DNA of 64,000 nucleotides. Source: Bilabrum cf. latius (taxonomy: Eukaryota). The notes beneath the pieces are model-generated. The model made no database searches and was not told where the DNA came from. It saw only the letters and a list, made by a program, of their open reading frames with translations. The stretch is from assembly GCA_965178125.1 (NCBI GenBank), contig OZ237760.1:62001-126000 (forward strand). Direction: 5' to 3'. The position numbers and the translations under genes are program-made. Below, piece by piece: positions 1-64,000 of the stretch (position 1 is its first letter; the number at the start of each line of letters is the position of its first letter).

Positions 1-3000
1 CGTCCATGGCGCCCAGCATCTTGCCCTGCCCCGGCCCCAGGCGAGAAGACACCTCGGTGGCGCGCCGCTCGGCCTCCCGCAGCAGCTGGGACGGCCGCTT
101 GCCCACGGCGGCCACAGCCTGCAGCCGCAGCGGGCCCCCGAGGGTGGGCGTGTCGTCCGTGGTGCGAGCCACGCCGTCCGTCCCCAGCCCCATGCGCGTG
201 AGCATCTCCTCGTCCAGCAGCGCGGGATCGCTGGGCAGGTTCTCGTCCACCCGGTCCAGCCACTCGGCCTCCTCCAGGTCCTTCTCGGTGAGCTGCACGT
301 CGCCGGCGGCGGCCCCGCGGAGCCTCCTGGCCAGCGCAAGCTGCCTGGCGGCCACGACCTGCTGCCACTGCTCCCTCACCTGAGCCTCGACCTCGTCCTT
401 GGCCTCGGCCTCTTCCAACACGGACGTGTCCACCTCGGGGGGCGGCTGTCCCCTCCGGATGCGGTCCGCGTAGTCCTCCGCCCCGCCCGCGCCTCCGAGC
501 ATCTCCTCCCGGATGCCCGAGTCACCCGTTTGCTCGGCGAGCCCGCTGATGGCGTGCCACTCCCGCATCTGCCTAGTGGGGTCAAGCACCCAGTGGTACC
601 TCGCGCGCACCAGGTCGCCGAGGTCGCCCTCGCCCTCACCCCGCTGCAGACGCTGCCAAGACTCCTGACGGAACTTGCGCTCCACCGCACGCTCGGCCCT
701 CAGCTGCGGGATGTGTTCCCTGCGCCGGAGCACCAGCTCGTGGTCCGGGGCCAGAGGCCTGAGCAGCTAGTCTACCTCTTTGGCAGAAGCCCCCGGCAGC
801 CATGCCCTAGCCTTGGCTGCAGCAGCCTCCCTATAGGCCTCAACGCCACGCTCCGAGGCGTCCGCGGGCACGCGCTCCTCAGCGTCCTTCCGCCACAGCG
901 AGCCGCCAGAACCCAGCTGGTGCGCCGCTGCGGTGGGCCCTCCCTTCTGCATGAAATCGTCCCTGCCCATGAGACGGGCGTTAGCGCGGAACTCGGCCTG
1001 CATGGCTTCGCTGAGCGTGCGGGCCGAACCCTCGGCCACAAGCCGGTGGGTCACCTTGACCGCCACCTAGGGGTTGCTCTTGAGAGTCCGCAGCACGGAG
1101 CGCGCCCACGGTGTGTCCTCGGAGCGCAGTCGCTGGTGAATCTCATTAACGCTGCGGGCCTGCGGGACAGACACGCGCCACTTGTCCACGTCCGCGAATG
1201 ACTGGGTCACGCCGCGGGCCACCTGCAGCAGCGCGGGGTGCTCGGGCATCTTCAGGGCCTTGAGCAGCACCTCGGGATCGTGCACCAGGGCAGCCAGGTG
1301 CCCGTCCTGCAGGCCCTCGGCGCCCATCTCCAGCAGCTCCTCCGTAGCCTTGACGTGCCCCTCGAACGTCTCCGCCCCGGGGCCACGGAGGGCCCAGCGA
1401 ACGGGGTTTCTCGCCTCCGCCGAGCCCCCGGGGTCTACCTCGGGCTCGTCGGTGCCCGCGCCTCCCTCCCTCTGCTTCGCTCCTGCACGGCGCGCCCCCG
1501 CTCCGATGTCCGCAGGTGCAGGCGCAAAGCCCATCGCGGCCCGCTCTAGGTTTGCGTCGGAGCGGGAGGGCGTGAAGAGGTGCCCGGTGACGCGCTACAC
1601 GCCCAGCAGGGCCGCACCAGCCACAGGGTGCACGCCCATCGTGTTGGTGCCGATGCTGGCGTCGAAGCCGCGGTACCCGTGGGCACCGGCCGGCAGGGGC
1701 TCGGAGGGGTGCATGCCCAACCAGCCGCCCTCGTCAGGCCGCGCAGACGCCTTTGTGGACTCGAGCCCGAACAGAGTGGCGCTCGGGCCCCGCACCAGAG
1801 GTTTCTTTGCCCCCGACTGGCTCGTGCTGTACCAACCAGCGTCGAGGAGCAAGGGTGCCCTCCGGTTGTGCAGCGCGTCCAGAGCGTCCGCATACGCCCT
1901 CGCACGGGACCTCCGGGCCTCGTCGTGGACGTGGAGCTCGGGGTCCGTGTCCATGGCCGTGCTCAGCTGCGCGGCAGCCGGCATGTCCGCTGGAGCCTTC
2001 ACCACGAACTCGCCCGTGAATGCAAAGGAATCCTTTCCATTCGCTGCCATTGAACGCTACTTCGGCACGAACTTGCTCGTGCCGTCGCCCCCGCTACTGC
2101 CCTTGTGCGGCTCGTACTGGCCCGCAAGCGCCACGGCAGATTCGTGCGCGTCCTCCTGGGTGGCACCCTCGGCCGTGGTGGCCTCGTACTCGAGGCGCGC
2201 TGCCTCGGACACCGCATCCTGCACGGCTCCCTCCATGATCAACAGGGTTTCCCCCGCCGAGGCCGCAAGCTATGGATCCTCGATGCCCCAGGTGCTGACG
2301 GCCCCGTAGGGCGCGTGGAAACGGTCCGTGACGTTCTCAACCTGCGGGCCCTTGTATCCGTCCAACATCTGGCTGCGGGTCAGAGCGTCCATGAGCTCGC
2401 CCCGGCGCCAGCTCGAGTTGAGCCGGCCCGCTGGGTGCGTCATGTCGCCAGCCTCCTGCTCCACAGCGGGCAAGGCCATCTGGTCGTGGTCGTATGGCTC
2501 ATGCTTGAAGCGCGGTGTGGACGGCATGCCGGCGTGCAGCTCAGCCATCCTACCCGCGGGGGACAGCGTGAACGCACCCGGGCCCATCTGGCGCCCGCCC
2601 GTCTTGCGCGCCTCCTCCGCGCGCTTGGCGGCACCCATGCGGAACTCCTCGGCGTCCTCCAGCCGCACCCGCGTGCGCAGCTTCTCGGCCATGGACTCGC
2701 CCACGGCCAGGTCACCCTCCCCTGCATCGGAGTCTAGCACCTGCTGTGCACGGCCTTGCCTGACCAGCGCGGCCTGGTGCATGAGCTCCGAGTCGGGCAC
2801 CTCGGTGAGGCCCAGCTCCATGGTGCGGGCATCCCGTCCCTTGCGAGCCTTGGCCACCGCCCCCGCGTGCCTCCTGCGGAGAGTAGCCACCAGCGGGTCC
2901 TCCTTATGGTTCTTGGACCTGAACAGGCGCGGGTCCGAGCGGTCCCTGTGCGCCACCCCGTCCCAGCCCTCGTTGTCTCCCGAGAATCGGGCCGCAGCTT

Positions 3001-6000
3001 GCTCGAACGCCTACGGGCTGATGGACGCGGCCAGCTCCATCGCGGTCTGGCCGTGCTCCGAAAAGAGCTTCCGCTCCACCTCCCCCGAGAGCCCGTCCAT
3101 CAGCAAGGAGCTGTTTGCGTCCTCTACCTCCAGTGCACGAGCCGCCATCACGCGGGCCAGGGCGGCCTCAGACTGCGCACGCTCTTCCAAAACGGCAGCG
3201 GGAGCCTTGCCCTTCTTCTCGATGGCCGCGCCAGCCTCTGCCCGCGCCCTGCCCACCGCCTCCAGCGCTGACTTGGCATCGTCGTGGGACGAGTGCAGTC
3301 CACGCACTACCGCTGCGGATGCAGCCACGATCTTGCCCTCGCGGTACGCCTGCTTGGCCCGGGCAGCGGCCAGCACAGCGGCTTGTGCCTCGTCTGCCTC
3401 CGGGTGCTCCGGCTTGACGCCCGAGCCGGCTAGCACCTGCTCAAGGCTCTCGCGCATCTCACGGGCGCGCGTGGGGACCGCGCTTCCCTCCTCCTCCGCG
3501 GCCGACAGACCCAACTGCGACTGCACCAGCCACGTCTGCGCGCGCCGGAGCACCGTCTTGGGCAACCTCGTCCCCGGGGGAGCCGCCCCCAGCAGCACGC
3601 GCACGCCCTCCCGCGTCTCCTCGTCCCGCTTCACGGCGCGCTGGAGCCAGTGACCACGGCCGGCGTGCTCGGCAGACCGCGCCTCCTCTTCGGCGGCTGC
3701 CACTCGGAAGCAGTCCAGCATTGACAGGCCGTTGCTCGACAGCGCCCTCAATTCGGTGGCGCGGGCCCTCAGCCGCTCCTCAAGCAGCAGCACCACCTTC
3801 TTCGAATCTGTCAAGGACTTGCCGAGGACGGCTTCCCTTCGGCTGGCGGCTTCCTTGATCGACTGCTTCGCTTCTTCGCTCAAGCCCTCGCCCAGCATGT
3901 CCAGACGGGCCGCGGCCTCCCCGGGGCTGGACCCGGGCCCAACCTCGAGGTCAATCTGGCTGGGATCCTCAAGGGCTACCCGCCGGGCGACATCCAGCTC
4001 GGAGGGCTCATTGAGGCACAGCTCCAGGGCCGCGTCCACCTCTTGGACGCTCGGAGCGCCCCGGGCATCCAGGTGCGACAGCGTCTGCTGCGCCTTTGTT
4101 CCCTTGGGCACCAGCTCCAGCCCACTGGCCCTCTCCTGCTCCAAGGCCTCCCCCGCGCGCACCTCCGTCCGCATTGCGAGCTCCTCGGTCAGGCCCTCCC
4201 GCGAGTAAGCAGCCTCTATGGACGAGTCACGGGCTTTGTGGGGCGGGCGGCCCGCCACTGCGGCATCTACAGCACGCTTTCCGGCCTCCGCATCGCTGGG
4301 CTTGCTCTGTGAGGCAGCGTCAGCTACATTGCCCTTGGCACTGGAGAGCAGTTTCTTCTCGGCCTCCTCGGTCGCAGCCACCGCCGTTGCAGCCGCGATC
4401 TCATCCACAGTAGGGAGTCCCTCGGGCTCCTTGGCCAGCACCTCGGAGGCGTCGGGCAGGCCCACGATGCCCTCCTTGGCGGCGACTGCCTCCGATGTGG
4501 CGCTCTTGTGGAGAGCCCTCGCGGCGGGCTCTGGCTCCATGGGCTCCGGCCCGTCGCGCACCCCAAGGGGCTGCACGCCGCCGGGTCCCTGCGCGCGCTC
4601 CCTCTTGGCATCGGCCATAAGCACGTGCAGCGGCCTAGTCGCGTCTTTCTGCGCCACGATGCGCCGTAGCAGGTGGTACGCCCTCATCCTGGCCTGGTCC
4701 TTGGACAGGCGAGCCTCCACCGCCTCCATCGAGACGTCTTCGCTGGCGTCTGCCACGACGGACTTCTCCGATGCAAAGGCCTCCGTCGACTGGAGCAAGC
4801 TGCCCGTCAGCTCTTCGGTCGTCTCGGGCAGCAGGAGCCGTCCCGCTTCCAGGAGAGCCTGCCGCCTCGCAGATCCGCGCGGCACTCCCATCTGGTCCAA
4901 GGTGTGCTGCAACTGCTGCTCCTCGAAGCGATCCAGCGCATCGACGTCGGGGCCCCCCATTGACAAAGAGTTGTTGGCGGCCTTGGCCACGCTGCTAGGG
5001 AGCTCGGGGGCTTGCATTCCGTTGCTGAGGTCGGGCCGGCTGCCTCGTAGATGCGCGGTACACTCTTCCACTGCCTCTTGTTGCATGCGGCTGAGATATT
5101 CGTCCCATGCCGAGTTCGCCGCTTCCTCGGCCTCCTTCGCCTTGGCACTGGGGGATGCGCCCTGCTCGCTCTCCAGCACCGCCTTGCGGGCGACTTCCGC
5201 CGCCTCTTGCGCCCCAACGATCCACTCCTCGTACGACTCCACCACAGATCGGATGGAGATGTTGAGCGCACGCTGCACGTCGGAAGGAGTGGCAGCTCGC
5301 TGGATGGGCACGCCAAACCGAGTGGTCCACCCGAGCGGCCGCTTCCATGGGGACAGCATCTCAACCCGCTCAGGGCTCAGCTTAGAGCTAGCCTGTGCCC
5401 GAGCACCTGCTGCAGTGCTTGCGCTCTGCTCCGCCGCGGCACTTACCTCGGCTCGGAGCTCGGGTACAGCCGTCGAGTCGCCGTCGAGCACTCTTCGCAC
5501 TGCAGCACTGACGTGGCTCGAGTCCAGCACAGCCGAATCACCCACGTTCTGTGTCGGTAGCTTGCTGGTATTGCCACCGCGCTCATCGGCCAGCGCCGAC
5601 CCGTCCGATCTGTCCCCAGGCAGCACCCTGCGTACTACGGCCTGCGCCACCGCCCTAGGGTGGATGCCCAGGTGCTTGAGTAGGTGTGGCAGGTGACTGG
5701 ACTTGCTCATGGCCTCTGTCACGGTAGCCATGGCGCGAGCCCGTACCCAATCCTCCGTGGCGCGCGCCACGGCGGCAGCCGACAGGTGCGCCGCGGCGTC
5801 TTCGGCCCTACCCCGTGCCGCGCTCTCAGCCGCAGCTGCATCGGCCGCCACCTTAGCCACAGAGGCATAGTCGGCAGTCGCGTCAACGTCGCTGCCCCCC
5901 TGCCGGATCACCTCGGCGGCCTCCTTGATCCCCTCCGCCATCGAGGCAGCCGAAGGAGACTCGCCATGCTTCTCCGCGATCTTGCCCAACCGCTCCCGGA

Positions 6001-9000
6001 CCACCTCCCGCTTGGCCTCCTGCACCTTGACGAAGTCCGCGGCGGACTCGGGACTGGGCATGAGCCCTGTGGCGATGGCGGCCCCACGAGCCGCCTCACC
6101 TCCGTCTCCTGCCATCTCGAGCCTCTCCTCTGCTCGCAAGGCGGCATCCGCCCTCTTCTGCGCACGGGCGAGCGCCTCCAGCTCCTGCAAAGTGCCCATG
6201 GGCCCGCCCACGGCGCCGCCGCTCATCCACCAGTGCCTGCCCATCTGTGCCGACACGACGCCATCGCGGCCCTCGCTCACTCCGGCAGGCCGTGCCCCTA
6301 GCCCCCTAGAGATCTCGGCCATCTCGGTGCGGGCCGAGGGCACGGTCTCTCTGCCCCGCCGTGGGCCCAGGCCATCGGGCAGCTGCATGCCTCGGTCCAG
6401 GTCGGGCATGGCTTCAAAGAGAGGCACCTCGTCCACATCCTCGTCAAAGCCTTGGGTAGAGACCCAGCCAGGCTTACGGTAGGCACTAAGATCGATGGCA
6501 TGCAGCGAAGAGGGGTCGAGCTCCTTGAGCCTGTGCGGGTTGGGCACTTTGTCAAGCTGTTTCTCCTTACGGATCATTTTCCCTTGCCTTTGGGAAGAGA
6601 CCGCGCCGAGGAAATCCTACCCCACGGGCCTCTTTTCCTTCATGCTGGCTGCAAGGGTGCGGGCATCGTTGATGGCGATGTTCGCGAACGAGTCCCCAGC
6701 AGGCCCCACAGTCGCCAACACGGGCGAGGCTCCCGGGTGCACGGCATGCAGCAGCCGGCCCCCTCGATCCAGGCCTGACATGGCTCGTAGGGACTCCACA
6801 AGCTAAGCATACCCTCTCGCGGACTCGTGCGCGTTGAGAGCTGCCCGGGCCTCCACTCGGGCGGCGGCCTCCCCTTCCTGCCCCGCGATTGCCAGGGCCG
6901 CCTCCATTGCCTCCTCGGCAGTGCGAGCCATCTCCTCTGCCCTCTGAGCGACAGCGGCAACGGTGCTTGACCCGTTATCGCCAGGAGTCGTGAGTGAGGG
7001 GCCCAGCTCAGGCACATCCAGGCCCTTGGACTCGGCCTGTGCCGAAGCAGCCTTGGCCGAGCCTGCCACTGCCTCTCCCAGCCAGCTGGCGGCCGCATCC
7101 ACGACTCTCTCGAAGGCACTGACCTCTCGCTGCCCGCCCAGTATGATACGCCTGCGGAACTCGCTGGCCTTGCGCACGGAGTGCACCATAAGCTTCTGCA
7201 CCACGTCGTCCTCCCCCTTGAGCATGGCATTCTGCACGGCACCCTTGAGCGCGGGTTCACCCCTGAGTCGGGCCATCCTTAGCTTCTCCTGGACCTCTTC
7301 CTCGTCCTTCCCGCCCCGCGCATACCAAGATGGCTCTGATGGCACGAATGGGTCCATGTGACGCAGCCTCACCACGCCATCGTGCTTAATGCCGCCAGCT
7401 GCGCATTCGTACGACAGATCAGCTCCGCGAGCCTCCACACGTGCTGCCTACTCGCCGGGGGCCGCACCGCCTTCGGAAGCTCTGGCAGGCACGCTGCTGG
7501 CGAGCACTTCGTTCGCGATACCAGCCCCTCCCGAGGCAGTTGGCTCCACCAGCATAATGCCTCGTTTGGTAGCTCGTGTGTTCCTTGCCATGTGCTGCAG
7601 CGCGATGGGGCCTCTCCGCAAGCCGCCGCTCTTGGCCTCCATCGCTGCATCCGTGGATGCTGTCCTCAACGCGTTGATCTCATCAAGCATGCCCATTCTG
7701 TGCACCTCATTCCCAGGCTGCCTGCCCGACGGCAGCGTGATGTTCTGCTCCTTCATGGCGCGGGCCGTCCGATCGAATGCATCCACATCGTCGGCATATA
7801 CCTTGGCGATGGCCAGCCCGCGCGTCATGACGTCCTCCTGCTGGACGCTGTCGGGCACAGGCAGCGAGGGCGAGGCCACGGGGTCAACCATCGGGTCCAC
7901 TCCACCAGGCACCAGCATGGCGGCCATGCGGTCCGCATCCGACCTGTCCGCGAGGTAGTTCTCCTTTAGCACCGCCTCTGCCACCTCTGCGGCAGTGCGG
8001 TCGTGCAAAGAGGGAAGGTGGGCGGGGTGCAGCGTGACACCCTCGCGGTCCGCCTCCTCGAGCAGCTCACGAGCCTTCGTGCTAGCGGCCTTGGTATCGC
8101 TCTTGGCAAAAATCTGCGTGGCCTGCATGGACGGGAATCCGTTGGGACCAGGGGCGCCAATCCTTCCGCCGTCAAGTCGAGCGACGTGTCCCCGGGCGTC
8201 ACCGGCTAGGCCAGGGTCCATCCCACCGCGCTTCTCCACCTCGAGGGCTGTGAGACGCCTGGAGAGAGCGGCGCGCTGGGCAGTGCGCTTGGCTCGGTCC
8301 ATGAATCTCCTCCTCTTGGCGGCGTCGTAGTGGTTCCGCTTCTCGGTGGGTAGCGGCCGCAGGGGGGCGTGCAGCTTGTAGAACCAGAGCATGTCCGCCC
8401 TGTCGGACCAGCGGCCCTGCTCCACGAGGTAATCGATCGAGGCGAGCTCCTCTCGGCTGTCGGGGTCGAGAGACCTGGCCTTGAGCTTGTCGTAGTTGAG
8501 ACCAAGCGAGGTGCCGTACAGGCTGGCCTCCTTCTCGCCCAGCCCGGTCACTGCGTCGAGAGCGGTAGGACCGTCCACCGCGGCACCAAGGGCGGCCTTG
8601 TCGAGCTTGATGTTCTTCGTGGACACCATATCGTGGCCCGCCAGCTCCAACGGGTAGTCCGCAAACCTGTCCCGACCCATGGGGGGCGTCAGCCTGCCGA
8701 GCGCCGCCCTTTGTGGCACGCCGCTGACCTGCGCCCAGGCAGCGGGAAGCGCCACTAGGGTCTCCGGGTTGGGCCCGCCCCACTGGGCTTCTGTGCCGGG
8801 CAGGGTGTTGCCTCCGCCCTCGGGGCCCTGGATCAGGTTGAGACTCGCGAGGTACGGGGCATCGTCGGGCCCGCCCGTCGTCATTGCCTCGGCCGCCTGC
8901 AGCTGCTCAATGTCCACCCTCTGCCTCTTGTACCTCGCCTCGAGGTCTGCCTCGCCCAAGTCGTTGAACTCGCGGTGGTCAGCGGCCTCCAGGTCTGCAT

Positions 9001-12000
9001 CCACAGCGGGACCGCCCTCTAGAATGGAGCGCGCGGCGCCATCCCCGGGCAGCACCGGCGCATCAAACCCACCGGCCAGGTCGCCCTCCAGCACCGAGGC
9101 CAGCGCGGCCTTGTCAGCCGCCCCTTTCTCCACGGCAGCCTCGAGGGCCTCTTGCGCCGAAATGCGCCTAGCTGCGGCCCGGCGATGCGCCCACACCTCG
9201 TCCCTGCCAGTCTCCTGCCTCCAACGCGCCCGGAGCCACATTCGCAGGTAGCTAGAGGCACCTTCCGCCGTGAGGCCGTCAGGACCGGCGAGTGGCCCGC
9301 GAACGTTAGGCTGGCTGCCCACGCTTCCATCCTCTGCAACGTGCTCCGCCAGAGGGGTGCCCGCGAGCGTGCCGCCAGCCACCTCCACGGGCAGCCTGGC
9401 GAACGCGAGCAGCGCATCGTCCGGCGCGCCCGCCGCGGACTGGTTTGCAGATGCAGCGGCCTCTTCGGCTAGCTGCGGCGAGCCGAACGCCGAGGCAAGG
9501 CTGGCGTAGTCGGGGCGGGCCTGCCTGGCCTTGGCCTCAATCGTGGACTCTATCACGCCGTGGTCCGTCGGGTTGATCGTCTCTGAAGAGAGCCCGTCGC
9601 CCAGGAAGAGCTCGCCAAACCCAGGACGGACCCACCCGATGCCCGGGCCTCCCCACACCATCGGCAGGGTGGCAGCGTTCTTCGGATCCAGCACCACGTT
9701 GGACGTGTCCGGGGGCGGCACAGGCGCGGCAGCCTGCTGCACCTGGTGGTTCACCAGGTCAACCACAAGCCTCTGCCGCTCCTGCCCGTCCAAGGGGACG
9801 TGCTCGTCGATCGCTTCCTGCAGGTCTTCCTGCCCCTCCTCGCCGACCATCCGACTCCGGAGGCCGACCCCCTCCCCGCCCAGCAGTGACACCCCGTCCC
9901 CACCAGCCTCAGCCAGCGATGGACCCTCCGAGTCGGACAGGGCGGCCTCCTCCACGTCCGACTGCGAGACCGAGGACGCGCCAGACTCGGATGACGTCGC
10001 CTCGGCATCCACAGCTGCACTAGATGACTCGGCAGGCGCAGCCGCGGCATCGCCACTGCTCTCGCCCTCCCCAGCGACCACCTCGGCACTCTCACCGTCC
10101 ACCTCGGCTTTCTCTCCAGCCAGCTCGGGCGGCAGCTCCAGGGTGACGCTGGCGTCCTCCATGGCGGCAGCTCGCTTCTGGCCCGCCCCCGACTGCGGCA
10201 TGGCCGCCTTTACCTGCTCCCTGGGCACCTCACCTAGCTCAAACACGTGGTCCAAACCACCGGCGCTGTCCAATCCAGCGGGGCCCGCAAGGTCCGCAGC
10301 CTTCTGCAGCATGATGTCGATCCCCTCAAGCGCCTGGGCAGGCTCCTTGCCCTCTCTTGCGTACCGTTCGATGACCGCCGGGTCCTCAATGTCCGTTTTG
10401 ATGCCGTCCGGCATGCGGGCCATGCCCAGATTGAACACGGGGTCCACAGTGCCAGGCTGCCAGTACGGATTGTTGCTCTTGGCCGGCCCGTAGTGGGGGC
10501 GCGGGCCTGGCACGTTCTCGGCACCGCCGTTCCGCGTGTACGCCAGCCAGTCGCCCCACGCCGCTCCCGGGTTGTAGCCCGCAGGCTGGCCCATTTGGAA
10601 CTGGGAGTTGAGGTAGAAATCACCCATGCCGCCCATGGGTCCGTCCCCCCCGTCGCCCAAGGCATGCCCCGTCTGGATGGCACCGTAGAGGTCCTCAGAC
10701 ACGCCCATGATGGCCTGTCCCCATCCCGACTCGAACATGGCGTCCTCACTTCTGTCGGCCACCACGTCGCCGATCCATGTCGGCTGCAGGTGGGGCCTGT
10801 CCAGCATCTCCCCGGCAGTTTCGATCATTTCCGTTTCCAGTTCCATGTCAGCGGACCGCCCCGAAGCAACGGCCTCCTCATCGTGGGCTCCTGACAGCCG
10901 CACGAGCAGCTCGTCTGCCTCCTCCAGCAGCAGCTCCTGTGCCATCTCGGCGTCCTGCGCGCTCTGCACCGCCGCCTCCCGCTGCAGCCGCAGCTCCTCC
11001 GACAGCTCCACGTCTGCAGGGTCCATCGCAGCGTCGGGCTGTGTAGGTGTCTCTCCGTCCCTGACCCGAATCTCACGCATGGACTCCCCCAGAGGCAGCA
11101 GGTCCGCCTTGCCCCCGCTGAGGTTGAGGGCACGGAGGCGCTCCTTGGCTCGGCGAGTTGCCACGGCCTCCCTAGCCTCCAGATGCCTCCCAAGGGAGAT
11201 GTCCTTCAGCGCGCCCCTGGCCTTGGCAGACTTGCTCGCGAGGTCCTTGGCCATGCGCAGTGCGTCCGACTCGCTTAGCTCTTCGCCGGCACTCTTGAAG
11301 GCGGCGCGCAGGCGGGCGGCCTCTGCTTGCACCCGGTCCCCATTGAAGCCTACCGTGGCGTCGCCGGCGGCACCCTTCGCTGCCTCAGACCCGCTGGCAG
11401 AATCCGCTCCGAAATCCCTGCGCTCATCCGGTGCGTCCAGCTCGCTGTCTTCCACCCCAAGCTCCTCCTGTACCCTGGCCAGCTCCGCGTGCTCGTTGTC
11501 TCTCTCGATCCGCTCGAAGACGTTGTTGGGTCCGTCGTAGTTCTCATCGTCGTGCGGCACCCTGCCTTGCTCCACCAGCTCGTCAAACACGTCAAACTCC
11601 ACCAGCTCCTGCACCACGGCATCAGACAGCCTCGCTGCCTCCTCCACGGCGCGCTGCTGTGCCACGCTGCGCTGAGCCTGCAGAGCGAACGCGGGCACGC
11701 CATGCAGCCGCGCTACCGCCAGCAGCACGGCCCGCTGCACAATCTGCGCGACAAACACGGGGGCACCCACAGGAGAGTCCACGAGCTATTCGAACCTGCG
11801 GGGGGCGTTGGAGCGCTGGGCACAGTCGTCCGCCTCCGCCAGGGTCAGGCTGCCGTGCGGCCACGACTGCCGCACGCCCTGCCGCACCGCATCCGCCACC
11901 CGGGTGAGCGCAGGGGCACCGCCTTCCCGCGCCACCGGGTCCTTGGAGGCCCTCGGGGGCGCGATACCCAGCGTGTCGTAGGCCTCGAGCAGCACGCCCT

Positions 12001-46217: not shown

Positions 46218-46346
46218 GCGTTTCCATCAATTGTACCGAAGCTTGCTGCAAATGGAGTGGCGCCGCCGCGTGTGACGATGTGGCAGTCTGATGACCGATC
46301 CGCAGCCAGCTTGCAGCTTGCTACGGTGGCATATTAGCGCCGTGCC

Positions 46347-52377: not shown

Positions 52378-53805
52378 TCATGCTTCGAACGTAAAGTTCA
52401 CTCCGACCACGTACCGCCCATCTCGAAAAAAGTTGGGGGTGTTCTGCACGTACAGGAGCGTGGCATCCGCCCCGATGGACTAGTAGTTGTTGTCTCCCCG
52501 CTCGGGCGCGCCCGCATCCACGAGCATGGGGTAGAACGCGTTCTGGATGTGAGGCAGACCCGATTCGGTGTACGGGTCGTACAGCAGCTGCGGGGGGCTC
52601 CAATGCAGCAGGTCGCGCGAGGATGAAACCATTAAGTTGGTCCTGGGCAGGCCCACCGACTCGGAGCCAAAACGGCCCGGTGAAAATCGCCCGCCAGAAG
52701 GCCGTGGCGAGCTGCCCCGATCCACCGCAGCAGGGCCGTTTTCTCCTAGCCCTTGCCTTGGTCCCGCCGACACCAAGCCGCACTGCATGGTCGCAAGGAA
52801 CTACCCCAGCGACCCGCTGTACGTGAGTCCGAGCACGTTGCAGTCGGCGGGCAGCGTGTCCAGCACGGTGCACGCGTGCCCAGCCCTGTCCCCGGGAGGC
52901 ATGCCGTACGGGCTCGCGAACGGAACGCTGAAGGAGGAGGAGGTGCCGTTCCACCCGCGCCAGGAGTCGGGTTCCAAGAGCCACCGCGTCCGCATGAGGC
53001 ACGTCCCGTGGGACTGGGGCCCCGCCCGGTTCCTGTTGTACGCCATGAGATAGAAATGCCCGTCCGTCGGGTGCTTGACGATCCCAGAGGTGTCGCCCCA
53101 GCCAAATGCCATCTGCTGCCCGGTGGGGTCGTACGGAAAGGGCACTGCCGCCACGAGATGCCCGGGTGGCGGCCTGGCGTGCTCCCACGAGTAGCCCCAG
53201 TCGTGGGACACAAAGAGGCCGAGCGTCACCGTCCAGCAATTCGGGTACGTGTGTCCCGGGGCGCAGTTGTTGTAGTTCATGCCAGGGTACTCCGTGTGCG
53301 CGATCGCAACAACTGTTCCATTTCCGAACGAGTACGTTGCGTCGCCCACAAATTCGTTCGCTGCGAACTGGCTCGGGTCTGGATCCGCCGTTGCGTTGTG
53401 AGCTATCGTGCAGTTCCTCTCGACATCCTAAAGCAACGATCCATGCGACCCGTACGCTATCCATAGGCTTGGATCTGTTGTGAAGATGTGAACTCGATTG
53501 CTAGTGTCTAAATAAGCTCTTACGGGCGTCTGCGAGGGAGTTGCAGTTGAGAGGATCCAATGATTGTTCTCGACACTGCCAATGGTGGCACAAAGGTCAG
53601 GTTCCCGGAGGTACGGAGAGCAAGGAAGGCACGACACAATATTTCTCACATCAGGAACGTCAAGTCCAAGGCCCTGTTTTTGCCCACACATGGAAGTGGT
53701 CGAATTCCACACTACGAACGCCGAGCTCGTATTCTTGAAGTGCAGCCCGTGACACCAAGAGGCAATGCCACTAGCAAAGGCAAGCTGAATGATTGATTGT
53801 CGCAT
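52378..53805 (-). CDS. Secreted hypothetical beta-propeller / glycoside-hydrolase-like protein (~435 aa); probable intron 53530..53649
   Basis: Signal peptide; DVPD|TPVRA; AIAHTEYPG; Asp-box-like SHDWGYSW and S.DLLHWS; CLMRT..L.P.SWRGWNG; YPMLVD. TAGs at 53428, 52801, 52480 join three same-frame ORFs. Ends TGA. Confidence 0.65.
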
Positions 53806-53928: not shown

Positions 53929-55407
53929 TCAGCTCCTGAAGGCCCTCGCAGCCTGCCCTTTCAGCAGCCCCGCGTGCACCGCCAGCACCACCCTCTCCGC
54001 CCCGGTGTGTGCCCTCACATCCCTCTCCACACCCTTGGCAAGCGCCCGAAGAGGACCCTTCCCGCGCCCCTTGAGCAGCCGCAGCTCGGAGGCGCTGGGC
54101 ACCAGCACGTCCAGCTCCACCCGCAGCACCTGGCCCCCCTGCTGGCCCTCGCTGGCGCGCACCCCCCTCAGCCGCTGCACGCACCTGCGCCCCACGTCCC
54201 CGTGCATGATCTTTAGCAGCTTCTCCCTCGCCGATTCGGCGATCACCTCCTCAAGGGTCATGGAGGAACCCCCACCGCGGGGGGGGTAAGCCCAGGGGAG
54301 GCGCCTCGAGCACGCCGCGATCCGATCCCAGAGCCCCCGCATGCCCCACCCGTGCCTCGCCGATACCCCCACCACGGACCTGGCCAGCCACTCGTCCTGC
54401 GCCACCACGGACCCCTCTGCCTCCTCAGAGGCTATGGCCGCCCGCCTGGCGCGGATCTCCTCCGCGGCCCGCAGCACGTGTTCTGGGAGCAGTGGGGTCG
54501 CGGACGGAGGCGCCAGCGGGGAGCCTCCGTCGGCAGCCGACTCCGACTCCGACTCCGACTCGAAGCTGTCCACCAGGACGTAGCCCGCGTCGACCGGACC
54601 CGCCTCCTCCCCTGCTTCATCGTGCAATGCACCAAGAGCGGGCGCGCCCTCCCCATCCGCCGCGGGGAGCCCCGCCAACACCGCCGCCGCCTCCCACCCC
54701 TCTGCAAAGTAAGCCAGCGCCTGCCTCTCCCTCGCCGCCCTCGCCGCCCCTTTACCCAGCGCGTCCACTTTGTTCACAGCCAGCAGCACCCTAGGCGTGG
54801 CGTGCTCCAGACCGTCGTCCCGCCGCACACGCCCCAGCGCGCTCTCTCGCAGCAGCCCCCGCGCCGCCCGCAGCAGCGGGACCATCCGCTCCCACTCCTC
54901 CGGCTGCACTCGGCGGGTCGCGTCCATCACCACGACAGCCACATCGGCCCCCGCAGCGGCCTCGAGGACGGCGTGCCGCGCGCCCGGCTGGTCTTCCCTG
55001 ATGCGGGGCGGGCGCTCAGGAAACCAGCCGGGACCGTCCTGCAGGACGGCCTGCGTGTCATCAACCGTTTGAATGGCCTCTGCGGCCAGCTCTGTGGTGG
55101 TGTTGCGGCGCTGGGACTCTGCAGAGACCCGCAAGCCGACCAGGGTATTCACCAACGACGACTTTCCGGCGTTTGTCGGGCCTATGAGCGCGACTCTAAC
55201 CGTGCGCTGGAACTTATAATCGAGATCGATCTATGGAGCCTTCAAACCAAGGTTAATTCCAGGGAACGATGCGGCATGCGCCGCATTCTGTGAGCAAGAG
55301 CGTGCGGTCTAGTCGAGCAGCAGGTGTCTGAACCGTAAATACCCTTGATTTTGCTAGAATAAAGATATGGCCGCCCCCAATCGGAACCGAGAAATTATTG
55401 TGCGCAT
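53929..55407 (-). CDS. ERAL1: Mitochondrial Era-like GTPase (492 aa)
   Basis: VALIGPTNAGKSSLVN (G1), NTT (G2), DGPG (G3 variant), NKVD (G4), VSA (G5), E..REKLL and a KH-like tail. Presequence MRTIISRFRL. TAGs at 55354, 55309, 55231. Ends TGA. Confidence 0.8.
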
Positions 55408-55578: not shown

Positions 55579-57514
55579 ATGCACCGAATTGCAATGAGGC
55601 GCTTAGCTTCCCGATAGCTTTCGATGGCGTGCCGCGCCTGTGGGGGGAGAATATTGGGTAGCAATTCGACACCAAAGGCGGCCTTGAATCGATACCAATC
55701 CTCCGGCTTGGCTGAACAGCCAGTCCGAGGATCAGTGCCCCAACTCGTAGCATAGCTGATGTTTGCAGCCTCAGACGACAAAGATGTGGATTCAAGCGGT
55801 GGAGACGATGCAAGCGAAGTCGGTGACGGGGGCAGCCAGGATGGCGCAGACGCATCTCCAAGTGCGAGCAGCGCAGACTCTGCTACCGCATCTGCCTCTG
55901 CTGCAGAAGAAGACTCAGATATTCCTGATTTAAAGCCAAGGGAAGTGAGTTCAATGACCGCGGAACTAGTCCGGCGGTTCGAAGTCGAGAGGTGGCCACG
56001 CACGTGGCACACTGCTCGAGGCTCGAAATACCGCGGGGACGACGGCCGCCAAGCGACTCCTGCGCTAGGAGACATCCGTATATAATGCATCGCTTCCTTG
56101 CGGCATTTGCCATCATGGACCACCTCTTCAGTCCCACATCGCCACGCCACCCATGTGTCCCCACACCACGCCCGTCTCATGCTCCTTGTCCCCGCAGATC
56201 GTTTCTCGGCTGGACCAGTACATCATCGGGCAGCACGACGCCAAGCGCGCCATCGCTGTAGCGCTGCGGAACCGCTGGCGCCGCATGCGCGTCACGGAGG
56301 AGCTCCGCCCCGAGATCATGCCCAAGAACATCCTCATGGTGGGCCCCACGGGAGTGGGCAAGACGGAGATCGCCCGCCGGCTGGCCAAGCTGGCGAGGGC
56401 TCCCTTCGTGAAGGTGGAGGCCACCAAGTTCACCGAGGTGGGCTTCCACGGCCGCGACGTGGACACGATCATCCGGGACCTGGTGGAGGCCTCCATGACG
56501 CTGATCAAGGAGCTGAGGACGGAGCAGATCAGGAGGAGGGTCGCGCCCAAGGTGGAGGACATGATCCTGGAGAAACTGGTGGGCCCGGGGGCTCCAGAGC
56601 AGGAAGAGTTCCGGTCTTTGCTGAGGATGGGGGGCTTGGAGGAGCGCTCGATCGAGGTGGACGTGCCGCTGGACGGGGGCGCGGGCGGGGGCGGAGGCCC
56701 GGGGGGGGAGGACATCGAGCTGTCGTTCGGCGCGGGGCAGACAGCCTCGGTGAACCCCGCCGACTTGTTCCGGTCTTTGGGAGGGGGCCGCCGACGGGCC
56801 CCCACGGAGTCGAAGCGCATGCCCATCCGGGAGGCCAGGCCGGTGCTGGAGAACGCGGAGATCGAGGAGCAGATGGCCCGGCTGGACCTAAAGAAGGAAG
56901 CCGTGCACCTTGCCGAGCAGCACGGGATCGTATTCATCGACGAGATCGACAAGATCGTCTCGGACAAGAGCAGGTACAAGGGCGGGGACGCGTCCGCGGA
57001 GGGGGTGCAGCGTGACCTGCTGCCACTGATCGAGGGGAGCAACGTGGAGGTGCGGCGCTTCGGGACTGTCAAGACGGACCACATGCTCTTCGTGTGCTCG
57101 GGTGCCTTCCACGAGGCCAAGCCCTCGGACATGCTGGCAGAGCTGCAGGGCCGGCTCCCCATCCGAGTGGAGCTCAAGGGGCTCACAAGAGAGGACATGC
57201 TGAGGATCCTCACGGAGCCAAAGGCCAACCTGATCCGGCAGCAGAAGGCGCTCATCGAGGCGGAGGGGGTGGAGCTGGTGTTCGAGGATGACGCGGTCAA
57301 GCTCATGGCAGAGCGGGCGGCGGACATCAACAAGACCGTGGAGAACATCGGGGCCCGGAGGCTGCACACGGTGGTGGAGCGGGTGATGGAGGACATCTCC
57401 TTCGATGCCTCCGAGGCCGAGCAGGGCAGCTCAATGAAGGTGGACACCAAGCTGGTCGAGGACAAGCTGGCTCCTGTGCTCAAGACCAAGGACCTGAAGA
57501 AATTCATCCTCTGA
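55579..57514 (+). CDS. hslU: Mitochondrial HslU/ClpY ATPase (560 aa); exons 55579..55944 and 56198..57514
   Basis: LKPRE|IVSRLDQYIIGQ, PKNILMVGPTGVGKTEIARRLA, VEATKFTEVG, FIDEIDK, GVQRDLLP, LQGRLPIRVEL, ENIGARRLHT, C-terminal KFIL TGA. Intron GTGAGT..cgcag. TAGs at 55615 and 55753 in the presequence. Confidence 0.95.
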
Positions 57515-57721: not shown

Positions 57722-58909
57722 TTACCCGGAAAAAGTTTTATCGCCAATCCCCGTGCCCGTCCCATCGCCAATCCCCGTGCCCGTCCCATCGCCAATCCCC
57801 GTGCCCGTCCCATCGCCAATCCCCGTGCCCGTCCCATCGCCAATCCCCGCGCCCGTCCCATCGCCAATCCCCGTGCCCGTCCCATCGCCAATCCCCGTGC
57901 CCGTCCCATCGCCAATCCCCGTGCCCTTGCCCGTGCCCACTGCAGAGCAGGGAGCTGCCCCCCTCCCGGCACCCCCGCCACCTTCGCCCCTTCGTGTGCC
58001 TGCCAGTGCCAGCGATGGCTTCAACCCGCCTCCAGTCAGAGGGCAGTGCTCACCAGCCGCCGGGACGTATGGCAGCGCGATTGCTTCGGCTGCACCACTT
58101 AAATCCTTGGGCCGCCCCATTTCATCGCCGCACGCCGCGCCACCCCTGTCCACTGCCCCTGCCTCTCTGCCAAGCAACCCCCCTGCCTCCTTTCCTGCAG
58201 CCCACCTGACCACGGCAGGCACGGCCCTCCCCAGCAAAACACACTCCACCGTGACACCCTCCAGCAGCGAGGACAGCCTGCTCCTTTCAATCGTATCGCC
58301 GGGCCGGCACGAAAACGGCGTTTCGGTCGACACTTTCAGCAGGAGAAGGGATTTACGAGCGTGGTGTGCGGCTCGCAGGCGAGCCTGCAGCGATCGCGTT
58401 CGGATGCTCGCTCTGCACCGGTCGTTTGTTCCTCCGTCTGGCCACACGAGCACGCCGAGATCTGCGTGCTGCCGCGGTTTTGGGCGAGCAGCGGCGGCAG
58501 CTGGCGATCCGTCCTCCGAAGATTCTTGTCGTCTGTACGCCACCATATCGCATCCAATTCGGCTGCCACATCCAACGAGCCAGCCTCTGGCGGTGAGGAA
58601 AGCAGCTGCTGCGAACACCAGCAGGCCCTCTGGGTCGACGGGGGGCTCGAGGGCGATATCTACCAGCGTGGGGGCTTGCCGCAATGACCACCCGTTAAAA
58701 ACTAGAAGATATACCATCCATGCCTAAATTGGGACCACACACGATTCAGTTGCCCATTCGTTCGGGTTGAGCGGGGTTGTCGATACAAGTCCCGCTACTT
58801 CGGTATGCATGCCTGTTTTACGGTGGTGCCGGAGCCAAAACTGGAAACATCTCTGTCGCCCACGGATAATGACTGAGTAGGAAACGCTCAGTTCGCCACG
58901 ATGTGCCAT
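57722..58909 (-). CDS. SEN2: tRNA-splicing endonuclease catalytic subunit, Sen2-like (395 aa)
   Basis: [22 protein letters not shown]....[20 protein letters not shown] matches the Sen2/Sen34 nuclease domain with a Tyr-His-Lys triad. TAG at 58724 joins the upstream ORF. Ends TAA. Confidence 0.7.
57740..57937. repeat. 24-bp minisatellite, ~8 copies (unit TCGCCAATCCCCGTGCCCGTCCCA), encoding (GTGTGIGD)n in the SEN2 tail
   Basis: Near-perfect tandem copies seen directly; one internal copy has a T>C variant. Confidence 0.95.
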
Positions 58910-59334: not shown

Positions 59335-61509
59335 ATGCCGGGCAAGAAATCGTCGAAGAAAGCCGGCGAAGCCGGAGGGACAGGGGCAGCAGCCGCAGCT
59401 GAGTCTGCGGCTGCCGCGCCCGCGAAAGCGCCCGCAAAGGAAATCACCAAGGAAGACGTGGATGCCAAGGAAGCCGAATTCAACCGCCGAAAGGACGAGC
59501 TGCAGAAGCGCCGTGAGACGCTTCGCGCGCAGATCGAGCTCAAGTCCTCCGAGCTGCAGGTCGCGCGCGCCAAGTTTCAGGGCGCAAAGGACGTGCAGCA
59601 GGCGCTCCGTGAAGATTTGAAAGCAGCGAAAGCAAGAAAAGATGCGGTACTCGAAGGCGTCAAGGGCCATCGCTCCAAGATGAAGAGCCTGATCGAAGAC
59701 ATGAAGAGCACAACTGCAGGCATGAGGTACCGGTCCGTCGAGGCCATCGACCGCAGGCTTGAGGAGCTCGAGGACCAGGAACGCTTTGGATCTATGTCAG
59801 CTAGGGAAGAAACAGCGGTTCTAAAGGAGCGCACCGAGCTCAAGGTCCAGCGCATGGCGCTGGAGCGGGTCTCGAGCAAGCAGAAGCGCCTCGACACGCT
59901 CAAGGCGCAGATCGACGACAAGAGCAAGGCGGCGAGCGAGCAGCTCGACGGCATGCGCGAAGAGATGCAGGCAAAATACGAGAAAGTGGAACAGCAAAGT
60001 AAGGTAGTGGACGGCCACCGCGCCGCCATGGACGAGATCTATCACGCGCGCAAGGCCCTCGAAGCCAAGAGGGACGCCGTCCGCAAGGAGCTCGACACCG
60101 TCTACCAGGAAAACAGAGCCTTCAAGGACACGTACCACCAGGCCGTCCGCGACTCGTAGCACGCCAAGTGGCTCGTGCGCCAGGCCGAGCGCGACGAGCA
60201 GAACCGCAAGCGCCGCGCCGAGGACGAGCGCTACAGGCTGCAGGAGAAGCGCAGGTACGAGGAGGACGCGCACAGGCAGGCCGCATACGACCCCGCCGCG
60301 GCCCGCGTGGCGGCCGTCGAGGCGCTTATCGACGAGATCAGGCAGCTGGCGCCCGAGGCGGCCCGCGCCCACGACGAGGAGCGCGGGATCAAGACCGAGG
60401 AGTCCGTCCCGTTCGCCCTCCGCAAGCACGCCTCCGCCACGGGCTCCCAGGCATCCGGCGGAGCCGGCATGTCCTCCGTGCCCCTCCCCGAGGGGACCTC
60501 CAGGGCCAAGGCCGTGGAGCGCACGCAGGACGCGGGGCTCTTCGGGGCTCTGGCGGGCGCGGCGGGCGCGGGATCCAAGGGCAAGAAGGGCAAGGCCGCC
60601 CGCAAGGCAGCCAAGGCCGCGCGCAAGGCAGCCAAGGGAGGCCCGGCGTCGAGCGGTCTGATCCTGCCCAGCGTCATGTCCTTGAGCGAGGAGTCGAGGG
60701 AGCAGCTGACCCGCCTCAAGGTGGATCCCCCCATGTCCACCACCAAGGAGGACGCACTCCCCGTGCTCAAGCAGCTGGAGGACGCGCTCGAGGAGGTCAA
60801 GAAGCAGCCCAGCGAGAGCTACGCGTCCAGGTTCGCCCGCGCGCTGGGGCTCAAGCCCGGGTCCAAGTTGACCACGGTCTTCGGGCCCGGCAAGATCCGG
60901 TCCGTCCGCACGTCCGACGGCATGCTCGAGGTGGAGCTGCAGGGCTTCACGGCGACTCTCTTCTGCACCACGGAGGAGGCCTCCGAGGTGATGTCCAAGG
61001 CCAGGTTCGCGGAGAGGCAGCGGAGGAGGCGGGCCGAGAGGGAGGCCAGGGGGGAGGGCCTGCCCAGGGGGAGGGGGAGGGGGAGGGGCCGCCGCGGGGA
61101 CGGGGAGGGGGGTGAGGGGGGTGCTCCCAGGGGCCGGGGGAGGGGCCGCGGGAGGCGCGGGGACAGGGACGACGAGGGCAAGGGCAGGGGCGCGAGCGGG
61201 GGTGCTCCCCGAGGAGGAGGCAGAGGAGGCGCCGCTGCCGCCGCCACCGGGGGTGCGGGCAAGAAGGCCGTGAGGCCTCCCCCCGGGCTGGGGGCCCCCA
61301 CGGCGGGGGCGCAGGAGAGCAAGGAGGCGGATCCAGGTGCGGAGGGCGAGGCCGCCGCTGCCGAGGAGGAGGAGAAGGTGGGCATCACCGATTCCAAGGT
61401 CGTGCGGGCCGGCAAGGTGGCCGGGGACATCTCCCCGGCGGCCTTCCCCACGCTGGGAGGCACCGGCGGGAAGCGCGCGGGCGGCGCCTGGGCTGCGGGA
61501 GGCCAGTAA
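59335..61509 (+). CDS. Bfr1/proton-pump-interactor-like coiled-coil protein with RGG-rich tail (724 aa)
   Basis: Long coiled coil; YRSVEAIDRRLEELE...GSMS..EE..VLKE..EL and L..LKVDPPMS resemble Bfr1/PPI. Single TAG at 60157 joins two same-frame ORFs. RGRG repeats. Ends TAA. Confidence 0.65.
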
Positions 61510-61908: not shown

Positions 61909-64000
61909 TCAAAGCTTGAACGAACCAGCAGTGCCGCCAGAGCCACCATTTCTCTTGGACGGCTTTCTGGAGCGCGACCGGCCCGTCGTTCGCAAACCGC
62001 CCCCATTGCTCTGCATGCTAGCGCTACCATCCGATGCGAGCGCCTTGCGGCGAATCTGGTCGGCCTCCTGCCGCGCGACGTCCTGCATATGCTTGAAGAA
62101 CTGCGACGAGCTTCCGTACTTGCTCGGCGCGCTCTCCAGGCTGCCGGCCGCATCCGACGCGCGGCCCGCGCCCTCCCCCCCGGCCTGTTGCTGCCCACCC
62201 GCAGTAGTCCTCGCCCGCTTGCTCGGCCTCCCTCCTGCCCCCGCCACACCGGCTTCTCTGGCCATGGATGCCGCCGCGTGCGGGTTGCCCAGCCCCCCGC
62301 TGGCCCTGCCTGCCGCCTCCTGCACCATGGCGTCCAGCTTCCTCTTCCTCCTCGCGACACGCTTCTTGGCGCGGCGATCCGCCTTCTTCTCCCCCGCAGA
62401 CATCTCCTCCCGGGACCGAACCACACCCCGCACGGGCGCCGCCACCTCCTCCGGCGCTGCGGCACTCCCAATGGAGGCTGCCGCTGCCCCCATGCCCTTG
62501 CCCTTGCGCCGAGTGCCGGCCGCCAGCCCCGCACCCCCGCCCACACCGGCCATGGCAGACGCCCCCGCGCCCACCGCCGCGGATGATCCGATCCCAGGAG
62601 TGGCCTCCTCCAGCGCGACGGCCGCCACTCCTTGGGCCCTGGACCGAACGGACATCTCTGGGGCCCTTGCTCTGGGCGTGAACGCGAAGTTGGAAAGAGC
62701 GTCCAGTCGGTGGAAGAGCTTCCCCATCAGCAGCCTGATCTCGTCCTCGAGCTGCCCGTGCCTGCCCCCTTTGCCCTCCCCATCGCCGTCCTCCCCTTCT
62801 TCCCTCTCCTTTGCAGCCGCCCACTCGGCCTCGTACACCTCGGCCAGCCCCTGCCGCTTGCCCTCGTCCCGCCGAATCAGCTCCTCCGCCTCCGCGAGCT
62901 CTTGTTCCCTGCGAGCCGCCTTGGCCGCCGCGTCCCTGGGCGCCTCATCCACGGGCACCGGATCGTCAAAGGCCCCGTCCATGATCCGCTGGCGAATGAG
63001 AGCCTCGAGCGCAGAGGTGCCGGTCCCGATCCCGTCCCTGCTCAACAGGGCTCCTTCACGCAGACCGCCTGAGCCTGACCCTGCCCCAGCTCCCTCGTCC
63101 CCATCGTCGCTGTCCTCGGCGAGACCAGCCCCAGGCGCGTCTCTGACCACCCTCTCGACGTCCACCACGGCCCCCAGCAAAGAGTCCTGGGGCCGCTGGG
63201 CTGCCCTCACCTCACCGGCGAGCTGCCACTCCCTCCCATGCCTCAGCTAGTGCGCCAGCTTGCTCTCCATCTCCTGGATCTCCTTCTGCTTTGCGCGCAT
63301 GCGCAGTTGGTGAGACGTGAGCCCATCCTCATCCTCATCCTCATCCTCGTCGTCCTCCTCCCCCCCGTCCATGCCTTCATCCCCAGCGGACATGCCCTTC
63401 TGCCGCCCACCCTCCTCATTCTCGTCATCGTCATCATCGTCGTCCGAAGAGGAAGATGCCTCGCCCAGCAGATCCACCTTGCTGCCCTCGATCCCCGCCA
63501 AACGACTTCCATGCTTACCGTCGTCCTCGCTATCGCTCTCGCTCTCACTATCGCTCTCACTATCGCTATCGCTATTACTATCACTGCCCCCCGCCCCATC
63601 GTCCTCATCGCCATCCTCGCTATCACTCCCGCTGCCCTCCTCCTCCTGCTGCTCCTGCAGGAACTCCTCATCGGGCTCGTAGTCCCCCTCGTCACCCAAC
63701 CCCTCGGCCTCCAGCTCCAGCATGCGGTCCAGAGCTGCCTCGGCCTCCTCGTCCTCTTCGTCCTCATCAACATCGGTACCGCCCTTGCTGGAGGTGGAGG
63801 ATGGCTTGCCCTGCTCACGGTCCCCAAAGAAATCGTCCTCGGCACGGGCTGCCCTCCGGATCGCCTCCAGCTTTTCCGCCGCGGTCATGGGTGCTGCCCC
63901 ACCACCCGATTGCTGCTGCTATTGTTCCTCCTCCTCTGGCTACCCGAGGGCAGCACCACCCCCATACAGCACGCGCTCCATCTCAATGTCCTCCTCGTCC
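61909..64000 (-). CDS. MPP10: U3 snoRNP protein Mpp10, 5' end outside window
   Basis: Acidic tract; LTSHQLR..QKEIQEME; WQLAGEVRAAQRPQDSLL; LEALIRQRI....FDD; GLAEVYE; LDALSNFAFTP; APEEV; SSQFF. TAGs at 63940, 63919, 63247. Ends TGA. Confidence 0.92.

Follow-up and report, generated by a model that had tools for sequence, protein, structure and literature searches.

UAG as a probable glutamine codon, with UAA and UGA as stops, in a GC-rich nuclear DNA segment from Bilabrum cf. latius

Protein-coding genes in a 64,000-nucleotide stretch of DNA from Bilabrum cf. latius (GenBank assembly GCA_965178125.1, contig OZ237760.1, positions 62,001 to 126,000; hereafter the window) contain frequent in-frame TAG codons and end in TGA or TAA. 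Comparison with related sequences indicates that cytosolic translation very probably reads UAG as glutamine, with UAA and UGA as the sole terminators, which is the pattern of NCBI translation table 15. Four features of that pattern are found here: UAG occurs in frame, it corresponds to glutamine by comparison, UAA is a stop, and UGA is a stop. The same code had been proposed in an earlier reading of the window from its letters alone (the sequence-only reading), and this core claim is borne out by the residues that relatives carry, by the absence of in-frame TAA, and by a TAA stop that aligns with the ends of homologous proteins. The window is GC-rich (60% to 70% throughout; 64% is the figure quoted for the DNA), and its eukaryotic nuclear genes are densely packed on both strands.

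In-frame TAG codons

Codons were counted in 16 frames for which Pfam domains or relatives provide support, each read from its first ATG. Their 17,955 codons include 73 in-frame TAG and neither TAA nor TGA, in agreement with the statement of the sequence-only reading that every in-frame break traced there is a TAG. Its hand tally was about 90 TAG in 16 genes; the number in the supported frames is 73 (78 if the same frames are read from stop to stop), and these lie in 13 of the 16 supported genes. TAG is also present inside Pfam domains. It occurs at about 4 per 1,000 codons and accounts for 73 of 716 glutamine codons, or roughly one in ten. The supported genes free of TAG encode a hydrolase (42011-44041), an aspartyl protease, and HslU.

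Read off frame, the same DNA yields 208 TAG, 73 TAA, and 581 TGA among 35,878 codons, of which TAA and TGA together make up 654 (1.8%). Two frames of 4,595 and 4,734 codons are open only when TAG is read through, and given the off-frame rate of 1.8%, a frame of 4,700 codons lacking both TAA and TGA cannot be a product of chance. Under the standard code the same genes break into pieces, and homology extends across the TAG sites.

Gene families were assigned with Pfam profiles on translations in which TAG was masked as X, and PDB sequence searches were added. The 16 supported genes are as follows, the last three being the controls without TAG.

2..13786, minus strand: giant protein with an N-terminal enoyl-CoA hydratase-like domain (Pfam ECH_2, E=5e-39), with 4,595 codons within the window and a 3' end beyond the window start; 12 TAG (first base, minus strand) at 13336, 12220, 11788, 7450, 6805, 6619, 3013, 2272, 2059, 1597, 1069, and 769
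16774..18207, minus strand: CIAO1-like WD40 gene (Pfam WD40, E=6e-41; human CIAO1 structure 3fm0, E=8e-65); 4 TAG at 18051, 18027, 18018, and 17157; stop TAA at 16774-16776
18366..20972, plus strand: DDX49/DDX47-like DEAD-box helicase (Pfam DEAD, 1.3e-39; Helicase_C, 2.8e-28; DDX47 structure 3ber, 4e-45); 9 TAG at 18369, 18465, 18558, 18564, 18576, 19638, 20007, 20124, and 20133; stop TGA
22658..36862, minus strand: FG-GAP-repeat (integrin-alpha-like) giant membrane protein (Pfam FG-GAP, 1.2e-63); 25 TAG; stop TGA
37799..41426, minus strand: Polo-like kinase, PLK (Pfam Pkinase, 1.9e-61, from profile position 43; POLO_box, 2.7e-23); 3 TAG at 39745, 39382, and 39370, in exon 2 (37799 to about 41061); stop TGA
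44304..46217, minus strand: PGS1-like gene, a PLD-type phosphatidylglycerophosphate synthase (Pfam PLDc_2); 5 TAG at 46115, 46037, 45995, 44981, and 44537; stop TGA
46278..47471, plus strand: aldose 1-epimerase-like gene (Pfam Aldose_epim, 3.6e-38), with an ambiguous start, so that its single TAG (46335) counts only with the upstream ATG; stop TGA
48280..49641, minus strand: pectin acetylesterase/Notum-family gene (Pfam PAE, 4.4e-62); 3 TAG, all within the PAE domain, at 49329, 49170, and 49140; stop TAA at 48280-48282
52378..53805, minus strand: gene for which the Pfam search returned no family, recognised as a long open frame with a coding-type GC content at third codon positions (GC3) of 0.73; 3 TAG at 53430, 52803, and 52482; stop TGA
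53929..55407, minus strand: Era/MMR_HSR1-type GTPase (Pfam MMR_HSR1, 2.4e-13); 3 TAG, all in the N-terminal leader, at 55356, 55311, and 55233; stop TGA
57722..58909, minus strand: putative tRNA-splicing endonuclease subunit, SEN2 (tRNA_int_endo, E=0.034, sub-threshold); 1 TAG at 58726; stop TAA at 57722-57724
59335..61509, plus strand: coiled-coil RGG-rich protein; 1 TAG at 60157; stop TAA at 61507-61509
61909..63981, minus strand: MPP10, of the U3 small nucleolar ribonucleoprotein (Pfam Mpp10, 4.1e-41); 3 TAG at 63942, 63921, and 63249; stop TGA; the 5' end may extend beyond the window
42011..44041, plus strand: secreted hydrolase-like protein of 676 residues with no Pfam family; GC3 0.85; no TAG among 28 glutamine codons; stop TGA
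49970..52204, plus strand: membrane-anchored pepsin-type aspartyl protease (Pfam Asp, 2.2e-29); no TAG; stop TGA
56153..57514, plus strand: HslU-type AAA+ ATPase (Pfam AAA_2, 1.1e-27); no TAG; GC3 0.91, the highest of the 16 genes; stop TGA

The types recognised by Pfam are thus the ECH_2 giant, the CIAO1-type WD40 protein, the DDX49/DDX47-type DEAD-box helicase, the FG-GAP giant, PLK, PLD-type PGS1, aldose epimerase, pectin acetylesterase, the pepsin-type protease, the Era-like GTPase, HslU, and MPP10, and PDB sequence searches concur for CIAO1, the esterase (Notum family), and the helicase. For the PGS1-like gene, 385 library proteins match at E<=1e-10, and the named ones are CDP-diacylglycerol-glycerol-3-phosphate 3-phosphatidyltransferases. 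Labels given from the letters alone therefore stand for MPP10, the DEAD-box (DDX49-like) helicase, CIAO1, PLK, PLD-type PGS1, and pectin acetylesterase; SEN2 is left with its weak match below the cut-off, and the coiled-coil protein that had been called 'Bfr1-like' has no family at threshold.

TAA and TGA as stops

Complete 3' ends are available for 15 genes, of which 11 end in TGA and 4 in TAA. The earlier count of 18 complete genes is reduced to these 15 supported ends, but TGA and TAA are indeed the only stops among them, and the four TAA stops are where they had been placed, at 16774, 48280, 57722, and 61507-61509. The frame past each TAA looks non-coding. In the esterase, TAA directly follows the sequence ...HGWC, which is the C-terminus of most aligned homologues, and the orthologue on a related metagenome contig (L001, described below) has TGA where the window esterase has TAA. 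If TAA followed TAG as CAA follows CAG (94/549, 0.171), about 12.5 in-frame TAA codons would be expected, and none is observed (P=4e-6). UAA is kept as a terminator and is unused in frame within the genes of the window. TGA closes 11 of the 15 genes and is absent in frame, versus 581 off-frame occurrences; UGA, too, is kept as a terminator.

These data bear on the common code in which UAA and UAG both specify glutamine (UAR = Gln, NCBI table 6; Amoeboaphelidium, ulvophytes, oxymonads, and many ciliates), with TAA being rare through GC-richness. The two codons usually change meaning together, as described in PMC5304391 and PMC11687900, and TAA is the rarest of the three triplets here, with 127 on the plus strand. 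However, we consider this code extremely unlikely for the window, given the shortfall of in-frame TAA, the non-coding look of the sequence beyond the four TAA stops, and the alignment of the esterase TAA with both the C-terminus of its homologues and the TGA of L001. The defining feature of table 6 is the use of both UAA and UAG as in-frame sense codons, and only UAG is found in that role.

Amino acid specified by TAG

Close relatives (86% to 95% identical proteins from public assemblies) have glutamine at 13 of 19 window TAG sites, glutamate at three, serine at two, and tyrosine at one. In the ECH_2 giant, the 12 TAG sites correspond to seven Q, two E, two S, and one Y in relatives that are 94% to 95% identical. 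The relative P0021 has Q at three of three TAG sites in the FG-GAP giant, P0028 has Q at TAG site 413 of PGS1, and P0001 carries Q, Q, and E at the three sites of the esterase. Each of the other residues (Glu, Ser, Tyr) can be encoded by a codon that differs from TAG at one base, and TAG exchanges mainly with CAG between close relatives. Likelihoods were calculated for 18 of the sites with an empirical substitution table, for which we used 6,109 aligned positions without TAG (92.9% identity). Glutamine is the best residue, glutamate is 37.1 natural-log units behind, and the others are further back, such that Leu, Ser, and Glu each trail glutamine by at least 37 units. The FG-GAP giant provides an internal comparison, as it is built from six modules of about 430 residues; when the modules are aligned, TAG falls in two otherwise conserved columns, one with I,Q,Q,Q,Q,TAG and the other with gap,Q,Q,D,TAG,Q.

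Decoding of UAG as glutamine, as first proposed from the letters, is therefore supported by the residues of close relatives (Q at 13 of 19 sites; 37.1 natural-log units) and by the paralogous columns of the FG-GAP giant. The conserved motifs originally cited for it fare less well. At the DDX49 sites, solved homologues carry D/E, G/S, and V/H/E/P, and at the acetylesterase motif (N-TAG-TDP and its companion) deep homologues have G/S/T, R/V, and Q in 5 of 18, so that neither motif argues for glutamine. The TAG sites are variable in PDB alignments as well, both for the esterase and CIAO1 and for the helicase. The SPA-TAG-FY column of PGS1 (E 74, D 24, Q 14, and A 14 of 140) is compatible with Q.

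Alternatively, UAG might specify some other amino acid (Glu, Ser, Tyr, Leu, Lys, Trp), or the TAGs might be assembly errors or pseudogene lesions. Deep columns rank Ser and Ala near Gln, and E, S, and Y do occur at some sites in close relatives, but in the close-relative likelihood every other residue lies at least 37 natural-log units behind Q. Errors are ruled out by four sequencing runs from three studies and by relatives whose proteins are interrupted at these positions too (both described below), and decay would have produced TGA and TAA as well, neither of which is seen in frame. We give this group of explanations almost no credence.

Relatives that appear to share the trait

Related genes in public collections are known mostly as protein fragments, and the ends of these fragments are informative. 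Fragments P0021, P0022, and P0028 finish exactly before window TAGs, the last of them just before the PGS1 TAG at 561. Two others (P0024 and P0025) finish at window CAG codons, P0193 and P0030/P0195 finish at window Q residues (with the window codons unchecked), and P0192 ends at a window Ser. Past P0024, P0025, and P0030/P0195, the gene is taken up again in a further fragment. These relatives are known as proteins, in which the codon that ends a fragment is itself not visible. Apart from P0192, these fragments stop at glutamine-equivalent sites, suggesting that the relatives probably carry in-frame stops of their own there. The end of P0027, at a window GAA, was dropped from the stop-equivalent sites; it falls where two contigs join and probably marks the end of one of them.

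The DNA of one relative is available. This metagenome contig (L001, 4.4 kb) is syntenic with the window, sharing its pair of esterase and protease genes, and its proteins are 77% (esterase) and 60% (protease) identical to those of the window. Its esterase has an in-frame TAG 37 codons ahead of the conserved ...HGWC end, and its protease has TAG where the window has CAG (in LYNVQYIMWAG). A third in-frame TAG, also in the protease, occupies a site of poor conservation that is GAT in the window. Taken as a series, the relatives are about 95%, 86% to 92%, 77%, and 63% to 68% identical at the protein level. At least four of those sampled appear to carry in-frame TAG, which is seen at the DNA level in the 77% member (L001) only.

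Gene copies that match the window at about 95% identity are also present in public collections. In run X1, a DNA-like run with the window's own organism label, 11 of 29 contigs across 16500-36499 are only 95% to 99% alike. These sequences may reflect a second haplotype, a homeologue, or a sister strain.

Sequencing runs and RNA editing

Reads were checked over positions 16500-36499 in four runs (X1, X5, X6, and X7) from three studies. The runs show one difference overall (25454 G>T in X6) and none at any TAG. Pieces with zero differences cover all 38 of the in-frame TAGs of this stretch in X1, 36 in X5, 15 in X6, and 10 in X7. Since no other letter appears at the TAGs in any run, base-calling or assembly error is excluded; a systematic base-call error, which the sequence-only reading had named as a possible source of the TAGs, is not found.

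Editing of U to C in the message, with UAG becoming CAG and the code remaining standard, would also produce glutamine and would explain the exchange of TAG and CAG among relatives. X5 to X7 have no C at any covered TAG, which argues against editing insofar as these runs are RNA. That status is only guessed, and X5 has been flagged as 'probably DNA'; among the listed runs that share the window sequence, none is recorded as RNA. The contigs of X5 to X7, from two studies, all start at 22533-22541, just past the FG-GAP stop, where the DNA run goes on. These start points, together with the sparse cover of 21169-22502, are weak hints of RNA. Splicing cannot prove the point, because the stretch 16500-36499 has no intron.

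Within the window, the only place where spliced reads could show an RNA origin is an intron in PLK. An upstream exon of this gene (41316-41426), in another frame, codes for the kinase N-lobe, and no ATG was found for that exon. Analysis of frames and splice sites places a canonical GT-AG intron of about 250 nucleotides at ~41062-41316. This is the one spliceosomal intron found in the window, suggesting that the genome is intron-poor and not intron-less. Nuclear editing of U to C that affects only in-frame TAG, at a density of about 4 sites in every 1,000 codons, is not known to have a precedent, and we regard editing as highly unlikely.

Proposed decoding mechanism

Reading of UAG as glutamine would involve a tRNA-Gln with the anticodon CUA, pairing with UAG and not with UAA, that is presumably charged by the normal glutaminyl-tRNA synthetase. 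The release factor eRF1 would have lost recognition of UAG and kept that of UAA and UGA. CUA is described as the only anticodon that reads UAG while ignoring UAA (PMC5304391). The TAG share of glutamine codons drops as GC3 rises (Spearman -0.58, p=0.019, n=16), and the three genes with the highest bias or a foreign look (HslU, the aspartyl protease, and the bacterial-like hydrolase) have no TAG. Rarity of TAG at high GC3 would fit a minor codon served by a low-abundance tRNA.

Evidence weighing against UAG as a glutamine codon

Several points count against the proposed code. The frames were delimited by TAA and TGA, so their zero counts for these codons arise partly by construction; what gives the zeros weight is that the frames are so long, that homology extends across the TAGs, and that each TAA is followed by sequence of non-coding appearance. 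Six of 19 TAG sites have a residue other than Q in close relatives, versus a change of about 7% elsewhere, and relatives at 54% to 77% identity show Q at only 1 of 10 TAG sites, suggesting that TAG is found mostly at weakly constrained positions. Columns of deep homologues barely discriminate among residues, with Codetta-like log-odds over 17 deep or paralogous columns of 1.01 for Q, -0.01 for S, -1.25 for A, and -3.3 for E. ARAGORN identified no tRNA genes in the window or in L001, and Rfam at gathering thresholds gave no matches. Message editing, unlikely as it is, belongs among these points, the RNA status of X5 to X7 being a guess.

Furthermore, the gene models treat TAG as never a stop, and occasional termination at TAG would stay hidden in them. 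UAG could in that case be dual, read as glutamine inside genes and as a context-dependent terminator at some gene ends, in the manner of Condylostoma, karyorelict ciliates, or Blastocrithidia. Only 15 gene ends are available, and some TAGs are 35 to 80 codons before the assigned stop (22786 in the FG-GAP giant and 52482 in the family-less gene). However, no gene needs TAG as a stop, and all 15 ends are TGA or TAA. The tail of PGS1 after its last TAG is conserved, with the C-terminal 95 residues matching P0060, and the L001 esterase passes its TAG to reach the conserved ...HGWC end. We consider a dual meaning improbable, and reading of UAG as glutamine throughout, with termination at UAA and UGA, is the explanation that we favor.

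Known codes and placement of the window

Reassignments of UAA and UAG in nuclear genomes are nearly always coupled, and few lineages with split meanings are described (PMC11687900; PMC5304391). According to PMC11687900, UAG is glutamine and UAA is retained in the fornicate Iotanema spirale, in Protocruzia tuzeti, and in two phyllopharyngean ciliate lineages; the UAG-only glutamine code of I. spirale is the subject of PMC5304391. Other splits reported in PMC11687900 assign UAG to leucine in the rhizarian exLh and to serine in Scotinosphaera, and Oligohymenophorea sp. PL0344 is reported to read UAA as lysine and UAG as glutamate (PMC11687900; PMC10553269). Like the window, these three have different meanings for UAG and UAA, and the amino acid differs (PMC11687900; PMC10553269). 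The codon table given in PMC11687900 for Protocruzia tuzeti and the phyllopharyngeans (UAG as glutamine; UAA and UGA as stops) is identical to that of the window. In contrast to ciliates, the window is a GC-rich, ordinary-looking segment of at least 64 kb with giant genes, and it bears no particular mark of a ciliate.

Iotanema resembles the window in being a non-ciliate with a nuclear code in which UAG is glutamine and UAA a stop, and in having a predicted tRNA-Gln(CUA), as reported in PMC5304391. The window differs from Iotanema in its mitochondrial-type HslU, Era-like GTPase, 64% GC, and compact genes on both strands. Iotanema, for its part, is known from a transcriptome and is an anaerobic metamonad; nothing in the window links its lineage with the source of this DNA. 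Amoeboaphelidium is an algal parasite with hybrid genomes. PMC5304391 and PMC6299283 cite Karpov et al. (2013) for a report that the aphelid Amoeboaphelidium protococcarum reads both TAG and TAA as glutamine. Like the source of the window, it is a non-ciliate eukaryote with a stop-to-glutamine reassignment, but TAA is glutamine there as published and a stop here (PMC5304391; PMC6299283). A search of sequencing runs gives only a small share of the window's words for runs X8 to X10 and for two runs labelled as algae and protist metagenomes, which is no evidence as to habitat or a tie with Amoeboaphelidium.

Homology searches scatter the window among eukaryotes. The named homologues of the esterase and PGS1 are from the choanoflagellates Mylnosiga and Stephanoeca, the ichthyosporean Amoebidium, the oomycete Saprolegnia, and the nematode Aphelenchoides, and they are 31% to 37% identical, where listed. 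For the aspartyl protease, the taxa returned by an Atlas look-up are uninformative. TGTAA, the green-algal poly(A) signal, is present in 1 of 15 3' flanks.

Significance of a probable UAG-only code at high GC

The window is a further case of the known table 15 kind of code. A full-text literature search, with subscription journals and supplements not covered, returned no report of a GC-rich UAG-only lineage. We place at about an even chance the broader proposition that this is a previously unreported, independent UAG-only glutamine code in a GC-rich, intron-poor, aerobic, non-ciliate clade. The capture of stop codons is usually linked to genomes rich in AT, where rarity of the codon comes first. 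If the proposition is true, this case would stand at 64% GC, a composition under which the disappearance of TAG is not expected; the graded relatives would date the change, and the order of tRNA gain and eRF1 change could be reconstructed. A kind of host able to express giant viruses that use TAG as glutamine would also be named.

Every further split case is a test of how a release factor can give up one codon of a nearly identical pair, and of how a newly arisen tRNA becomes established. Unusual features of this one are the GC-rich genome and the involvement of housekeeping genes (MPP10, CIAO1, the DEAD-box helicase, PLK, and PGS1). Together with relatives at 63% to 95% protein identity, which appear to share the trait (seen in DNA for L001 only), these features open its timing and mechanism to comparative study. 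In practice, standard gene callers break such genes, and public collections contain the genes of the relatives only as fragments that probably end at TAG; annotation or phylogenomics on these assemblies needs table 15.

Other features of the window

The two domains of the DDX49-like helicase are separated by a low-complexity insert of several hundred residues, consisting of poly-Ser and Asp/Ser/Glu sequence (19400-20300, plus strand). Contigs of all runs are interrupted within this insert, and repeats were skipped at 19237-19411. In the FG-GAP giant, the start is uncertain: FG-GAP sequence and a signal-peptide-like stretch are found upstream of the first ATG (36862-37432, minus strand), with no earlier ATG, and the true start may be in an upstream exon or at a non-ATG codon. 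The nearest Atlas clusters of the hydrolase at 42011-44041 are all bacterial, with Actinomycetota as the commonest phylum, and one is named as a member of the tannase/feruloyl esterase family; the gene may have been acquired horizontally.

Two further intervals lie outside the 16 supported frames. Positions 21169-22502 have no supported gene, and runs X5 to X7 cover little or none of them. A possible additional gene is an open reading frame at 15270-16652 (plus strand) that contains 4 TAG; it has a signal peptide and a transmembrane segment, and it matches the PSI domain weakly (E=0.054). In the SEN2-like protein, a tandem repeat of GDGTGTGI is located at the C-terminus (57722-58000, minus strand).

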